NCBI GenBank assembly: GCA_035529595.1
Contig: DATKWK010000023.1
Location: 78,517 to 142,516 of the forward strand
Length of the DNA stretch: 64,000 nucleotides
Origin: Candidatus Bathyarchaeia archaeon
GTDB lineage: Bacteria > Patescibacteriota > Microgenomatia > PFEM01 > JAFGMK01
Direction of reading: 5' to 3'
This document shows positions 6,653 through 64,000 of the stretch, one piece after another. Made by a program: the position numbers and the translations under genes. The notes beneath the pieces were generated by a model. It searched no databases. It saw only the letters and a list, made by a program, of their open reading frames with translations, and was not told the DNA's origin. Each line of letters opens with the position of its first letter. Position 1 is the stretch's first letter.

Positions 6653-6696
6653 TTGACATTGTGTGAAAATCTTTGCTAGTGTTTCTATGTATGAAG
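6653..6696 (+). promoter_or_regulatory. Promoter-like TTGACA...TAGTGT/TATGTAT upstream of the 6776 ORF
   Basis: TTGACA at 6653, AT-rich -10 candidates 18-25 nt downstream. Confidence 0.3.
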
Positions 6697-6728
6697 TTAA
6701 ACTGGGCTACCTATTTAACTTAGTTATT

Positions 6729-6754
6729 AAATCCGCTTATGGGCGGATTTTTTT
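6729..6754 (+). terminator. Intrinsic-terminator-like hairpin plus T-run in the 5' leader of the 6776 ORF (possible attenuator)
   Basis: AATCCGCttatgGGCGGATTTTTTTT immediately followed by RBS AGGAGGTG and the ATG. Confidence 0.5.
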
Positions 6755-6775
6755 ATGGAAAGGAGGTGAAAAAGA

Positions 6776-34624: not shown

Positions 34625-36631
34625 ATGGATCTAATTATTGTTGAATCACCGACTAAAGCGCGCACTATCTCCCTTTTTATCAAGGGTGATTATTCTATTC
34701 TGGCGACAATGGGCCATATCCGGGATTTGCCGAAAAAAAAATTAGGCGTCGAAGTCGAAAAGGATTTCCAACCCCAATACGTTCAATTACCGGGCAAGAA
34801 AGCAGTCATTAGGAATTTGGAAGAAGCGATCGGCAGAGCAAAAAAAGTCTATCTGGCCACCGATCCGGATCGGGAAGGAGAGGCGATCGCCTATCACGTA
34901 ACGACGCTAGGACCAAAAACCAAATTTTTAAGGATTACCTTTCACGAAATAACCGGTACGGCAATTCAAAAAGCCTTAAGCGACCCGGGGGCGATTAATA
35001 TGCCGCTAGTGAATGCCCAGCAGGCACGTCGGATTCTGGATCGGTTAGTCGGCTACAAACTTTCTCCTCTTCTGTGGCGCAAAATCAGGATCGGTTTGTC
35101 AGCCGGCCGGGTGCAGTCGGTTGCCGTCAGGTTAATCGTTGATCGCGAGAGGGAAATTGAAAAATTTATTCCTGAAGAGTATTGGGAAATTGCCTGTCAA
35201 TTGCGGAAAAGATCCAAACGGAAGAAAGGCGATGAGCCCTCTTTTATAGCGAAGCTGGTTAAAAAGAACGGTAAATCGATTAAAGTAAAAAATAAAACGG
35301 CAGCCGAAGAGGTTGTCGAAGACTTAAATAAAGCCGGTTTTAGAGTCGAGAAGGTGGAACAAAAGGAAATTAAGAATTCACCCCCGCCTCCGTTTATAAC
35401 CTCGACTCTCCAGCGGACGGCTTTTGCCAAACTCGGTTTCACCAGTAAGCAAACAATGCAGCTGGCTCAATCGCTTTACGAAAAGGGTTTAATTACCTAC
35501 CACCGGACTGATTCGGTCGCTTTATCCGGTGAAGCGTTAGGGAAAATCAGGGAGTCTATTAAGCTGAAATACGGTGACCGGTACTTACCCGAAACTCCCC
35601 GGTATTATAAAACCAGGTCTAAAGTTGCCCAGGAAGCCCACGAGGCAATCAGGCCGACAGATTTTCAATCCCAAATTCCCGATAATAAATTTCAAAATGG
35701 GCAGGAAAAAAAGCTTTTTGGCCTGATTTTCAAGCGTACTGTCGCTTCACAAATAAAACCGTCAGTTTTTGATCAAACCAAGGTTTTTGTTAAGACAGAA
35801 AAACTCGCTAATCTTTATTTGCTTCTGGCTGAAGGCAAACTGGTCAAATTCGATGGTTGGCTGGTTGTTTATAGCCAAATTAAAAATGAAGCAGGTAAGG
35901 AATGCCTGCCACTTCTCAAGCCGAATGACGAACTGGTTTTGCTTAAGGTTTTGTCTGAACAAAAGTTTACCCAGCCCCCCGGTCGTTATAATGAGGCGAC
36001 TTTAATTAAAGCGCTTGAGGATAAAGACATCGGTCGGCCTTCTACCTATGCACCGATCATTGCCACCATCCAGCTAAGACAATATGTTGAAAAGGAAGAG
36101 AAAAAATTTAAACCGACGTCTTTAGGAATCACGGTTAATGATTTTTTACTTAAGTATTTTCCTCATGTTTTTGATTATAGTTTCACGGCTCAAATGGAAG
36201 ATGAGTTGGATGATATTGCCAGAGGCAAAAAAAATTGGGTGGTTACTGTGACTGATTTTTATCAGCCTTTTAGCCAGAAATTAACAGAAGTACTTGAGGT
36301 AGCGGAAAGAGTTAAGATTCCGGCCGAAGCAACCGGTCAAAAATGTCCTAAATGCCAAAGTACCCTGGCTGCCGGTGAGCAGGGAGAACTAGTTATCAAA
36401 GTCGGGAGATTTGGAAAATTCATTGCCTGCTCCCGGTTTCCAAAATGCGATTACCGGGCCAGTTATGTGGAAAAATTACCGGGGATAAAATGTCCGGAAT
36501 GCGGAGGAGAAATAGTAATTAAAAAAACCAAAAGAGGGAAGAAATTTTACGGTTGTTCCAATTATCCCAAATGTAAATGGGCCAGCTGGCGGAAACCAAT
36601 GATTGTGATCAACAACACCGGCAAGCGCTAG
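34625..36631 (+). CDS. topA: DNA topoisomerase I with C-terminal zinc-ribbon repeats
   Basis: Toprim start MDLIIVESPTKARTI; catalytic-Tyr region LITYHRTDS; C-terminal CPKC...C..C zinc fingers (x2). Confidence 0.9.
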   Translation: MDLIIVESPTKARTISLFIKGDYSILATMGHIRDLPKKKLGVEVEKDFQPQYVQLPGKKAVIRNLEEAIGRAKKVYLATDPDREGEAIAYHVTTLGPKTKFLRITFHEITGTAIQKALSDPGAINMPLVNAQQARRILDRLVGYKLSPLLWRKIRIGLSAGRVQSVAVRLIVDREREIEKFIPEEYWEIACQLRKRSKRKKGDEPSFIAKLVKKNGKSIKVKNKTAAEEVVEDLNKAGFRVEKVEQKEIKNSPPPPFITSTLQRTAFAKLGFTSKQTMQLAQSLYEKGLITYHRTDSVALSGEALGKIRESIKLKYGDRYLPETPRYYKTRSKVAQEAHEAIRPTDFQSQIPDNKFQNGQEKKLFGLIFKRTVASQIKPSVFDQTKVFVKTEKLANLYLLLAEGKLVKFDGWLVVYSQIKNEAGKECLPLLKPNDELVLLKVLSEQKFTQPPGRYNEATLIKALEDKDIGRPSTYAPIIATIQLRQYVEKEEKKFKPTSLGITVNDFLLKYFPHVFDYSFTAQMEDELDDIARGKKNWVVTVTDFYQPFSQKLTEVLEVAERVKIPAEATGQKCPKCQSTLAAGEQGELVIKVGRFGKFIACSRFPKCDYRASYVEKLPGIKCPECGGEIVIKKTKRGKKFYGCSNYPKCKWASWRKPMIVINNTGKR

Positions 36632-36648
36632 CAGGCTTTAAACACGGC

Positions 36649-37959
36649 ATGATCAAACGAATGAAAATTTCTCCTTTTATGTTTAGTCGGGAAGAAAAGA
36701 TCAAGGGTAAAATCTTAATTTTATCTCAGGAAATTTACCCGCAAGTTTGTATTGGCGGATTAGGAAAGTTCGTTGCTGGAATCAGTCACGGTATGCAAGA
36801 CCTCGGTTGGGAAACAACTGTTTTCTTGCCCGAAAATCAAAATCCGGTTTATCTTCCCTATTATTTACCGGAAGCAAAAGCAAGAAGTAGAACCTTGGTA
36901 AAAAAAGCTTTGAGCTGGTGCTGCAATCACCTTTGGTGGCCAAATTGGCTTTGGGTTCAAGATTGGGAAGGTGCTTATCAGGCCGAAGTGTGGCGGCAGC
37001 AAGCGAGGGGAGTTTCTCAATCGGAAACTAAGATAATTTGGACAATTCACAGTCCGCTGACAACCGCCGGTGCAGGCTATAATTATGGTTACCAAGATTT
37101 TAACCAGCCAGATGAGCCGATTGATTGGGGTGATGATTTCTTTGATTTTGCCGCTTTGATTGAAAAAGGCATCTCCAACGTTGACTTAATCAGCACTGTT
37201 TCGTTTTCGTTTGCCAGGAAATTAACCAGGTGTGAATTATTTTCTCAGGCAGATCAGATTTGTGGGATTAATAATGGAATCGATAGTCGGGAATGGGACC
37301 CGTATCACGATAAACAAATTAGCTTTTGCCTTAAAGACAGCTGGCCGGAATTTAAGTTGGTCAACAAAAGAGTCCTTCAGAGAATTTTCGGCTTGCCGCA
37401 GAGGAATGAGCCGGTTTTTGCCTTTGTTTCCCGGTTAGTACCGCAAAAAGGTATCGATCTATTGATAGAAGTTTTACCTGGAATATTGGCTAAAAATCGG
37501 ATTCAGTTGATAGTTGTTGGCCAAGGCTTAACCAGGTACCAATCCTTTTTTGCCCGATTGAAATCCGATTTTCCACAAAAACTTGGCTTATGTCTCCAAT
37601 CAGAATTTCGATTGCCTCATCAAGTTTTTGCGGGTGCAGATTTTCTGATTTTGCCTTCATTTTCTGAACCGTTTGGTATTGTTGTTGCTGAGGCGCGCCA
37701 ATACGGAGTTATCCCAATAGTAAGCGACGTCGACGGCTTAGCAGATCAAGTTCGAAATGATATTGACGGCTTAACCTTTGAAACAGGTAACGTTAATTTA
37801 TTAGCCGGTAAAATCTATGAAGCATTGAGGCTTTTTGGTAGTTCGTCTTATTGGACTCTAAGTAGTAATGGCCGGAATCGAGTTGAGGACTGGCTAGAAA
37901 TTGCGGCACGATATGAGTTTTACTTGGCAGGAGCAGATCAGCAAAGGTATCCCTCTTGA
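36649..37959 (+). CDS. GT4-family (GT-B) glycosyltransferase
   Basis: N-terminal ...EIYPQVCIGGLGKFVAGIS... (glycogen-synthase-like G-rich loop) and C-terminal LPSFSEPFGIVVAEARQYGVIPIVSDVDGLADQV (E-x7-E motif region). Start at the first ATG after the topA stop. Confidence 0.7.
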   Translation: MIKRMKISPFMFSREEKIKGKILILSQEIYPQVCIGGLGKFVAGISHGMQDLGWETTVFLPENQNPVYLPYYLPEAKARSRTLVKKALSWCCNHLWWPNWLWVQDWEGAYQAEVWRQQARGVSQSETKIIWTIHSPLTTAGAGYNYGYQDFNQPDEPIDWGDDFFDFAALIEKGISNVDLISTVSFSFARKLTRCELFSQADQICGINNGIDSREWDPYHDKQISFCLKDSWPEFKLVNKRVLQRIFGLPQRNEPVFAFVSRLVPQKGIDLLIEVLPGILAKNRIQLIVVGQGLTRYQSFFARLKSDFPQKLGLCLQSEFRLPHQVFAGADFLILPSFSEPFGIVVAEARQYGVIPIVSDVDGLADQVRNDIDGLTFETGNVNLLAGKIYEALRLFGSSSYWTLSSNGRNRVEDWLEIAARYEFYLAGADQQRYPS

Positions 37960-62354: not shown

Positions 62355-62813
62355 ATGGCTTCCTTACCGAAACAGATTGCCCAACAGATAGCCCGGATTG
62401 TTAAACAGACCGGCGAAGCAGTGGTCAAAGAACCGTTGGAAATTGTCAAAACTGCCGGCCAGCAAACCGGATTGACAAAAAAAGAGGAAGGGGTCGAAAG
62501 ACCGCCGGGAGGTGGCCCATCGTCTCAACAGGTAGCCAAGTTACAAAAGAAACAACAAGAGGACCAAAAAAAACTGGAATTTTTTCGCCGCCGGTTACGG
62601 GAACTGGCTGAAGAGACGCAAAAGCCGCATCAACCAACGCCTGAAGAAATAGAGGAATACCAAAAGAAAATGCAGGCCGAGGAAACCGCTAAAAGAGAAA
62701 AGGAAAAGGGATCGATCACTGCCCCCGGCGGGCCCAGTAAACGGGGAACCGCTCTCATTGGCGGCAAAAGAAAAAAAGGCGGTAGTGAAATGATGCCGGC
62801 TAAGTCAAGGTAA
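62355..62813 (+). CDS. Lys/Glu/Gln-rich hypothetical protein (152 aa)
   Basis: Low-complexity charged protein; start overlaps the recR stop region. Confidence 0.4.
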   Translation: MASLPKQIAQQIARIVKQTGEAVVKEPLEIVKTAGQQTGLTKKEEGVERPPGGGPSSQQVAKLQKKQQEDQKKLEFFRRRLRELAEETQKPHQPTPEEIEEYQKKMQAEETAKREKEKGSITAPGGPSKRGTALIGGKRKKGGSEMMPAKSR

Positions 62814-62871
62814 GGAAATTGTTATTCTTCGGCTCAAATAATCTTGAAACCCTCAGATAACTGCGAGAACA

Positions 62872-62900
62872 TTGACAACTTCTGGTATACCGTTTAGAAT
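62872..62900 (+). promoter_or_regulatory. Near-consensus sigma70-type promoter TTGACA-17 nt-TAGAAT
   Basis: TTGACAacttctggtataccgttTAGAAT. Confidence 0.5.
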
Positions 62901-63016
62901 TACCGACAATGATTAGAAACACCTTTACGATCTGTTTGAGCTGTTGCCAGTTACGGTTGGAGGGGTGTTTGATTCGGAAACGCTGAAACATTGTTAAAAT
63001 AATCGGCAAAAACACC

Positions 63017-63039
63017 GCCTCCTAACCGGAGGCTTTTTA
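63017..63039 (+). terminator. Intrinsic terminator (GCCTCCtaaccGGAGGC + TTTTT) about 110 nt upstream of cysS start
   Basis: Perfect 6-bp GC-rich stem, 5-nt loop, T5. Confidence 0.65.
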
Positions 63040-63149
63040 ATTATATTTAGGAGGCCCTGAACAAATCGGGCCGGATAGATTCAAAGAGTGTATGTTTTTA
63101 AATTGACGATTCGTTATTTGAATTGCGGAGTCAGTTGAGGGATGATAAG

Positions 63150-64000
63150 ATGATAAACAAGATGACAATGGTCAAATTATATAATACTTTAACTCGGAAG
63201 CGGGAGGAATTCAAACCGATTAAAACAGGTAAGGTGGGGATTTATTCCTGCGGTCCGACGGTGTACTGGAACCAGCATATTGGCCACATGTACGCCTATG
63301 TCCAATGGGACATTTTAGTTCGTTTCCTGCGCTATCTGGGTTTTGAGGTTAGTTGGGTGATGAATATTACCGACGTCGGCCACCTGACTTCGGATCAGGA
63401 TACGGGCGAGGATAAGATGGAAAAAGGCGCCAAAAGAGAAGGATTGACGGTTTGGCAGATTGCCGATAAATACCTTGGCCAGTTTTTGGAAAGTATTGAT
63501 CTTTTGAATATTAAGCGGCCGGATGTTTTATGCCGGGCGACCGAGCACCTTCAGCAACAGATCGATCTGATTAAGAAAATAGAGAATCGGGGTTTCGCTT
63601 ATAAAACGGCGACCGGTTTGGTTTTTGATACCACCAAATATAAAAATTATGCCGCTTTTGCCCGACTGAAGTTAGAAAAACAACAGACAGGGCAACGACT
63701 GGAGATTGATCCGGAGAGAAAAAATCCTTGGGATTTTCTCCTTTGGGTAACCAACCAACCCGGTCACGTGATGCAATGGGATAGCCCCTGGGGCCGGGGA
63801 TTTCCCGGTTGGCATATTGAATGCACGGCGATGTCGACTAAATATTTGGGAGAAAGCTTTGATATCCACACCGGCGGTATTGATCATATTTCGGTTCACC
63901 ATACCAACGAAGTTGCTCAAGGATACGGTGCTTTCGGCCACCAAACCGCTGCTTTTTGGCTCCATAACGGCTGGTTGAAATTTAAAGGCGAAAAAATCAG
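63150..64000 (+). CDS. cysS: Cysteinyl-tRNA synthetase, 5' part (continues past window end)
   Basis: [46 protein letters not shown] (HIGH motif)...; no stop before 64000. RBS GAGGG 9 nt upstream of ATG 63150. Confidence 0.85.

Follow-up and report, generated by a model that had tools for sequence, protein, structure and literature searches.

The cysteinyl-tRNA synthetase (CysRS) gene cysS lies at the 3′-end of a 64,000-nucleotide (nt) stretch of contig DATKWK010000023.1 (positions 78,517 to 142,516, forward strand; hereafter the window), and is preceded by a candidate transcription unit that includes a promoter, a Cys-rich open reading frame (ORF) of 25 codons and an intrinsic terminator that competes with a longer, alternative pairing. 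We consider it probable (approximately 0.8) that this element controls cysS by ribosome-mediated, or leader-peptide, transcription attenuation of a leaderless Cys-codon type, with charged tRNA-Cys as the signal. The evidence comes from sequence, folding and comparison between loci, and from it we infer the transcription start, leaderless translation, ribosome-polymerase coupling and an in vivo response to cysteine. An earlier note on this DNA had proposed a cis-acting terminator/antiterminator attenuator of cysS with its own promoter, an idea that is supported in general terms. Of the forms that it considered, the fallback of a "different attenuation mechanism" is the one borne out, as a leader-peptide attenuator; the 25-codon ORF with its four Cys codons had been overlooked.

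Promoter, leader peptide and alternative pairings

The features of the leader are listed in Table 1. The leader ORF is unusual in composition, as only 2 of the 454 short ORFs (sORFs) of 8-40 amino acids (aa) that begin with ATG in the six frames of the window, the leader ORF included, have at least 3 Cys residues and at least 16% Cys. The other strongly Cys-rich sORF of the window is MPCLKPASACRCC, at 36609-36650 on the minus strand. The ATG of the leader ORF is located 8 nt downstream of the -10 hexamer (TAGAAT-TACCGACA-ATG), and no Shine-Dalgarno sequence is present in the preceding TACCGACA; cysS itself has GAGGGA. Because a Shine-Dalgarno sequence is missing and the ATG is at the predicted transcription start, translation of the leader ORF is predicted to be leaderless, with the AUG at the 5′-end of the transcript. 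Pfam searches found no significant match for the 25-aa leader peptide, nor for the minus-strand ORFs of 71 aa and 43 aa across the leader region. The gene downstream encodes a class-I CysRS (Pfam tRNA-synt_1e, E = 1.6e-78), of 479 aa at full length in an identical contig (L161), so that the gene predicted to be regulated serves the charging of the same amino acid that the leader codons specify.

The near-consensus promoter that had been reported, TTGACA-17-TAGAAT at 62872-62900, is present and matches the consensus at 11/12 positions. Sites of this grade number 6 on both strands of the window compared with approximately 2.5 in shuffled sequences, which on its own is not significant, and the promoter is credible because of its position and not because of the quality of the match. 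It is the sole promoter-like site on the plus strand from recR to cysS, and a scan of the interval from the terminator to cysS detected no second promoter-like site for cysS. From promoter geometry alone, transcription is predicted to start at approximately 62907-62909, that is at ATG 62909 or 1-2 nt 5′ of it.

The terminator, described in the earlier note as perfect, is found at 63017-63038 and has a G+C-rich stem without mismatch but of only 6 bp (-10.2 kcal/mol), followed by U5. The promoter-to-terminator unit therefore exists as described. The leader is approximately 130 nt, the gap between the end of the U-tract and the cysS ribosome-binding site (RBS) is 99 nt, and the distance to the cysS start is about 110 nt.

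A segment able to pair with the 5′ arm of the terminator had also been noticed, and the pairing proved both real and longer than was noted. Segment 2 (GGTTGGAGGGGTGTTT, 62955-70) and AAACACC-g-CCTCC-t-AACC (63010-27) in segment 3 form an antiterminator duplex (2:3) of -23.7 kcal/mol, in which 16 Watson-Crick pairs are interrupted by two 1-nt bulges. When the upstream leader was shuffled by dinucleotides, the mean was -10.9 +/- 2.5 kcal/mol, and only 1/2000 shuffles was as low. The whole leader is also more stable than its shuffles (z = -2.5), being equalled by 4/200.

In the free leader RNA, hairpin 1:2, which encloses Cys codons 9, 12 and 13, forms together with the 3:4 terminator. Folds were also calculated with a ribosome placed at chosen codons, a model that is in silico only. 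When the A site is at Cys9, or at Cys12 with a leading edge of +12, the 2:3 antiterminator forms and 0/6 terminator pairs are left. Nascent RNA that lacks segment 4 gives, with the ribosome at Cys9 or Cys12, energies of -21 to -25 kcal/mol and 5/6 nt of the terminator arm paired. A ribosome at the UGA stop, like the absence of a ribosome, allows 1:2 to form and leaves the terminator paired at 6/6 positions.

These folds suggest the following mechanism. The transcript from TTGACA-17-TAGAAT would begin at or next to the AUG of the 25-codon ORF, and a ribosome would load without a Shine-Dalgarno sequence. When Cys-tRNA is scarce, the ribosome would stall at Cys codon 9, 12 or 13, covering segment 1 or separating it from its partner. 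Segment 2 would then be free to pair with segment 3 once this has been transcribed (16 bp), hiding the 5′ arm and loop of the terminator, and polymerase would read into cysS, leading to more CysRS. When Cys-tRNA is plentiful, the ribosome would reach the UGA, 1:2 would re-form behind it and the 3:4 terminator would form, stopping transcription approximately 110 nt before cysS. Untranslated transcripts, including those that read in from the upstream dnaX-ybaB-recR operon, would terminate too. As translation is not expected to begin at the AUG within read-in transcripts, these should end here, and the terminator would therefore also close the upstream operon.

Table 1. Features of the cysS leader in the window and of the leaders located directly before cysS at three related loci
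Feature	Position	Strand	Description	Basis
-35 hexamer	62872-62877	+	TTGACA	Direct reading of 62400-64000
-10 hexamer	62895-62900	+	TAGAAT, 17-nt spacer after -35	Sequence
Leader ORF	62909-62986	+	25 codons + TGA, peptide MIRNTFTICLSCCQLRLEGCLIRKR; four Cys codons, starting at 62933, 62942, 62945 and 62966	ORF translation
Segment 1, anti-antiterminator arm	62917-62925	+	AAACACCTT (also given as AAACACCUU); partner 62962-62970	Minimum free energy and centroid folds
Presumed sensing Cys codons	62933-62947	+	TGT 9 (62933-35), TGT 12 (62942-44), TGC 13 (62945-47)	Inside hairpin 1:2
Segment 2	62955-62970	+	GGTTGGAGGGGTGTTT (also given as GGUUGGAGGGGUGUUU); partner segment 1 or segment 3	Folds
Fourth Cys codon	62966-62968	+	TGT, codon 20, within segment 2	Sequence
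Segment 3	63010-63027	+	AAACACCGCCTCCTAACC (also given as AAACACCGCCUCCUAACC); holds terminator 5′ arm 63017-22 and loop 63023-27	Folds
Intrinsic terminator	63017-63038	+	GCCTCC (63017-22), loop TAACC, GGAGGC (63028-33), TTTTT (63034-38)	Sequence, folds
Segment 4	63028-63033	+	GGAGGC, then U5	Sequence
cysS RBS	63137-63142	+	GAGGGA, 7 nt 5′ of ATG	Sequence
cysS	63150-64000	+	Cysteinyl-tRNA synthetase, predicted regulated gene, continues past the window end	Pfam tRNA-synt_1e
Leader at L003 (= L085)			TTGATT-18-TATCAT; -10 to ATG 6 nt; sORF MHKEKVISCSCSLCE	
Leader at L095			TTGACA-16-TAGAAT; -10 to ATG 7 nt; sORF MTKSQTISCCCSL	
Leader at L117			TTGAAA-17-TATCAT; -10 to ATG 8 nt; sORF MTNKICCLYIRS	

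Recurrence of the layout in Microgenomates

Relatives were collected by searching genome and metagenome contigs with the N-terminus of CysS, which gave 160 loci. The best CysS matches (66-80% identity) are from Microgenomates, namely Woesebacteria, Gottesmanbacteria, Shapirobacteria and Amesbacteria. In L003, L095 and L117 a leader of similar layout is located directly before cysS (Table 1). In each, hairpins and a terminator are found 3′ of the sORF, the terminator being 40-80 nt 5′ of cysS.

The window and about 160 cysS loci (1.76 Mb, both strands) were scanned for a composite pattern with three parts: an ATG sORF that encodes 6-40 aa and matches C.{0,2}C; a TAnnnT hexamer whose end is 4-9 nt 5′ of the ATG; and a terminator no more than approximately 110 nt away. 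There were 12 distinct matches, 11 of which are upstream of cysS on the cysS strand. The additional matches, beyond the window, L003, L095 and L117, are 0.8-2.7 kb upstream of cysS. The leader precedes a PALP (cysteine-synthase-like, cysK-like) gene, followed by cysS, in L102, L107, L159 and L066, and it precedes a PIG-L deacetylase gene, followed by cysS in the same orientation, in L017, L019 and L136. When the -10 filter was dropped, two loci were added, L012 (before a methyltransferase gene) and L151 (before RidA), in which a TATAAT or TACAAT hexamer precedes the ATG by 10-12 nt. In all, 12 further distinct Microgenomates loci share the layout of promoter, ATG approximately 7 nt on, clustered-Cys sORF and terminator.

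The association with cysS was checked for specificity. Filtering on the -10 hexamer and terminator without regard to composition yielded 93 sORFs from the 1.76 Mb, 12 of them with clustered Cys, and 11/12 of these are upstream of cysS on its strand compared with 13/81 of the other sORFs. No other amino acid in the 93 filtered sORFs shows such an association, save for residues that co-occur in the same peptides. The TAnnnT hexamer is 4-9 nt before the ATG in 11/13 Cys sORFs but before only 10.5% of all ATGs.

A switch that depends on ribosome position, as modelled for the window, was obtained for 9 of the 13 loci (the window, L003, L095, L102, L107, L159, L066, L012 and L151). Modelled as nascent RNA, seven loci have an antiterminator of -17 to -25 kcal/mol when the ribosome is at the Cys codons and of 0 to -4 kcal/mol when it is at the stop codon, and L012 and L151 have segments equivalent to 1:2, 2:3 and 3:4. 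The helices themselves differ, with AAACACC/GGUGUUU and CCUCC/GGAGG in the window and CUCCCC/GGGGAG in the others, and what is conserved across loci is architecture, not sequence. The comparison of cysS upstream regions that the earlier note had proposed thus recovers the architecture in 12 further loci, but the window helices are not conserved in sequence and the sole other copy is identical. In an alignment of six CUCCCC-type leaders with MAFFT and RNAalifold, the terminator was mis-registered and the consensus was poor.

In L117 (2346-2431), L017 (1923-2013), L019 (2067-2162) and L136 (1671-1765), a long hairpin adjoins the terminator, with its 5′ arm overlapping the sORF stop. The mechanism of this structural subclass may be one that is as yet undescribed. 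Promoter-like sequences are found right after the terminator in L117 (TGTATAAT) and L019 (TTGACC-17-TACATT). The genes for PIG-L/LmbE-family deacetylases directly before cysS are at 2034-2753 in L017, 2252-2974 in L019 and 1770-2522 in L136, a combination of deacetylase and CysRS-type enzyme that is reminiscent of MshB/MshC in mycothiol synthesis.

Two further arrangements were seen. A hydrophobic mini-ORF of 18-19 aa is conserved immediately 5′ of cysS in L022 (2825-2881), L152 (2059-2115) and L153 (211-270); the peptides (MCVIALVTLIYAKSKKWV, MFAVALCTLIYARHKKWI and MMCAVAICTLVYARHKKWI) are not of the Cys-cluster type. In the window, a second unit of similar layout is located at 6654-6760 on the plus strand. 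It has TTGACA-18-TAGTGT, 8 nt, ATG at 6691 and a 10-aa sORF (MKLNWATYLT) with no amino-acid bias, and then the terminator TCCGCTTATGGGCGGA+T7 (6733-6755), an AGGAGG RBS and a 253-aa secreted-looking protein from 6776.

The operon upstream of the leader is dnaX-ybaB-recR-orf152. Its last gene, between recR and the leader, is a 152-aa Lys/Glu/Gln-rich ORF (62355-62813, plus strand) with no Pfam match; many relatives have a gene of similar size after recR, where it adjoins cysS directly. The window CysS (P0001) carries the NCBI label "Candidatus Bathyarchaeia archaeon" (from a third-party metagenome-assembled genome, MAG TPA). The locus is of bacterial origin, from Microgenomates in the Candidate Phyla Radiation (CPR), as indicated by the dnaX-ybaB-recR synteny, the sigma-70-type promoter and closest CysS proteins in Woesebacteria and Shapirobacteria, and the contig has probably been mis-binned; it also occurs in Logan assembly SRR8554643. 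The label "uncultured Gammaproteobacteria" is carried by many related "binchicken" MAGs.

Contrary evidence and alternative explanations

Several observations weigh against an attenuator, some of them concerning the window leader itself. The terminator is short (6 bp, U5), and leaderless initiation of the leader ORF is deduced from promoter geometry alone. The outcome is borderline when the A site is at Cys13 and the footprint is long, as the equilibrium fold retains the terminator, and stalling at the fourth Cys codon, which is inside segment 2, would favour termination. Others concern the distribution. In most Microgenomates loci cysS adjoins the preceding gene, with a gap of <60 nt, and the nearest CysS relatives (L162, L164 and L167, 81-82% identity) are without the leader; for the closest CysS proteins (P0002, P0003, P0005 and P0007, 81-82% identity), the contigs either end just upstream or have no leader. 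The sole other copy of the exact leader, found by an exact-match look-up of RecR, is in Logan contig L161, which is identical and hence offers no covariation for the window helices. The criteria of the composite scan were set after the layout of the window had been seen. Finally, the folds of L117, L017, L019 and L136 predict no antiterminator, making the family mechanistically heterogeneous.

The absence of the leader from the nearest relatives and the shortness of the terminator would also fit an unregulated layout, in which the terminator simply ends dnaX-ybaB-recR-orf152, cysS has a leaky promoter, and the Cys ORF and the pairing are coincidental. A promoter match of 11/12 is likewise not rare (6 sites against 2.5 expected). 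However, the promoter is upstream of the terminator and its transcripts must therefore cross it, the joint chance of the features is low (Cys richness 2/454, duplex 1/2000 and a -10-to-ATG geometry shared by 10.5% of ATGs), and the combination recurs in 12 other loci. We regard coincidence as unlikely.

The region is a complete promoter-to-terminator unit, and could as such produce an independent transcript of approximately 130 nt, acting in trans as a small RNA (sRNA) or encoding a functional Cys-rich micro-protein of 25 aa, and in neither case controlling cysS. The promoter-like sequences after the terminator in L117 and L019 mean that the downstream gene could be expressed separately there. 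In the window, there is no other promoter-like site between terminator and cysS. The peptides of the 13 loci, which are 12-25 aa long, share little beyond the Cys cluster, the window peptide has no Pfam match, and a 16-bp antiterminator overlapping the terminator would have no purpose in a plain sRNA. The stand-alone sRNA that the earlier note had offered is further disfavoured by the position of the units, which always have the orientation of cysS and precede Cys-related genes, the sORF and terminator recurring before cysS or cysK-like genes in the 12 other Microgenomates loci. Independent function can be considered improbable.

Translational attenuation of the mycobacterial type, in which a stalled ribosome opens a structure that hides the cysS RBS and termination plays no part, deserves mention as the closest experimentally proven system, that of leaderless poly-Cys sORFs, works in this way (bioRxiv 10.1101/834739). 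In the window, however, the RBS is 99 nt past the U-tract and outside the alternative pairings, and the interval between terminator and RBS (63034-63175) is not unusually structured (z = -0.8). A canonical hairpin with U-tract is present, and competes with an antiterminator in 9/13 loci. This mode of control is very unlikely here.

A T-box was the first proposal of the earlier note. Rfam 15 was scanned with the whole window at the gathering score, which returned four tRNAs only and no RF00230, and with 62750-63250 (500 nt) at E<=10, which returned no T-box or other leader family; the best match was AaHKsRNA82 (E = 1.6), which is at chance level and was matched on the terminator alone. These scans are without a positive control, since the Clostridium/Bacilli cysS loci L028, L061 and L064 had no T-box in the flanks that were fetched. 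The T-box core GGGTGGNACCGCG (motif GGGUGGNACCGCG), allowing up to 3 mismatches, gave 13 matches in the window, a total below chance expectation, with none in 62814-63149. Hence, although T-boxes classically control cysS in Firmicutes and the leader has both a terminator/antiterminator pair and UGU/UGC triplets, a riboswitch in which uncharged tRNA-Cys binds a specifier Cys codon and stabilises the antiterminator via the T-box bulge is very unlikely, as RF00230 and the core are absent, approximately 130 nt is short for Stem I, Stem III and an antiterminator, and the related Cys-sORF leaders match no Rfam family.

Wider meaning and comparison with known systems

The genomes of the CPR (Patescibacteria) are very small and encode few recognisable regulators, and to our knowledge the control of gene expression in these bacteria is almost unexplored. 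A Cys-sensing attenuator would operate with a leader of 130 nt alone, without a dedicated protein or an RNA-binding factor. Its recurrence before cysS and genes of Cys metabolism would show that tRNA-Cys charging is monitored in several Microgenomates lineages, and also that leaderless initiation and coupled transcription-translation operate there. On balance, we lean towards the view that Microgenomates possess an undescribed set of leaderless Cys-codon sORF attenuators before cysS, cysK-like, PIG-L deacetylase and RidA units, a CPR "Cys ribulon". If true, this would be the first indication of leaderless translation and ribosome-polymerase coupling for amino-acid sensing in these ultra-small bacteria, which are poor in regulators; full-text literature searches found no description of leader-peptide attenuators or of leaderless translation in Patescibacteria/CPR. 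The layout (a -10 hexamer, an ATG approximately 7 nt on, a codon run and a terminator) could also serve as a search pattern for regulated genes in uncultured genomes. The attenuation mechanism itself is textbook, and Cys-codon attenuation of cysS was earlier predicted in two other phyla.

The classical leader-peptide attenuators are trpL, hisL and pheM-pheST of Escherichia coli, the last of which controls an aminoacyl-tRNA synthetase. The window element shares their four-segment logic (1:2, 2:3 and 3:4), with regulatory codons in or near segment 1. The E. coli leader ORFs have a Shine-Dalgarno sequence and a 5′ untranslated region, whereas the window AUG is at the predicted 5′-end of the transcript, and in E. 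coli the ribosome masks segment 2, whereas in the window termination would follow from 1:2 re-forming behind the ribosome. The T-box leaders (RF00230) of cysS and cysES in Firmicutes are terminator/antiterminator switches that respond to tRNA-Cys charging. They share with the window element the gene controlled and the type of switch, but their sensor is the binding of tRNA by RNA, in place of the translating ribosome of the window model, and both RF00230 and the core motif are absent from the window leader.

Closer parallels combine Cys codons with cysS. The uORFC-8-2 motif of Brewer et al. 2021 (PMC8632094) is a computational prediction with 145 examples, which are all upstream of cysS in Rhodobacterales; it has tandem Cys codons plus a terminator and was read as ribosome-mediated attenuation. 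The motif and the window element have in common a clustered-Cys upstream ORF in the first stem, then a stem with a U-run, directly before cysS, and the proposed logic is equal, stalling at Cys codons leading to read-through. The motif, as described there, differs in being confined to alpha-proteobacteria and in having two tandem Cys codons at positions 14-15; no sequence relationship with the window leader is shown, and the latter matched nothing in Rfam 15.

In Deinococcus deserti, the start of the cysS mRNA, mapped by differential RNA sequencing (dRNA-seq), is the AUG of a 10-aa leader peptide with two Cys residues, for which a role in transcription attenuation was proposed (de Groot et al. 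2014, PMC4007540). Both systems have a Cys-containing leader peptide before cysS, leaderless in Deinococcus and predicted to be so in the window, but the Deinococcus peptide has 10 aa and is from another phylum, and the start is mapped there and only predicted in the window.

The mycobacterial leaderless polycysteine sORFs of the "Cys ribulon" have been proven by experiment to attenuate Cys operons at the level of translation (Canestrari et al. 2020, bioRxiv 10.1101/834739), and were anticipated by Seliverstov et al. (PMC1262725). Their leaderless 5′-AUG, Cys runs and sensing of Cys-tRNA by ribosome stalling correspond to what is predicted for the window sORF, and several Cys operons each have their own sORF, comparable with the cysS, cysK-like and PIG-L loci in Microgenomates. 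However, the mycobacterial sORFs unmask a downstream Shine-Dalgarno sequence, without an intrinsic terminator, whereas in the window a canonical terminator/antiterminator pair is located 99 nt 5′ of the RBS. Cys-codon leader peptides are already known, and the advance is one of distribution, not of principle. In a phylum without a reported case, the window element would join a leaderless start, as in Deinococcus and the mycobacteria, to a canonical four-segment terminator/antiterminator.

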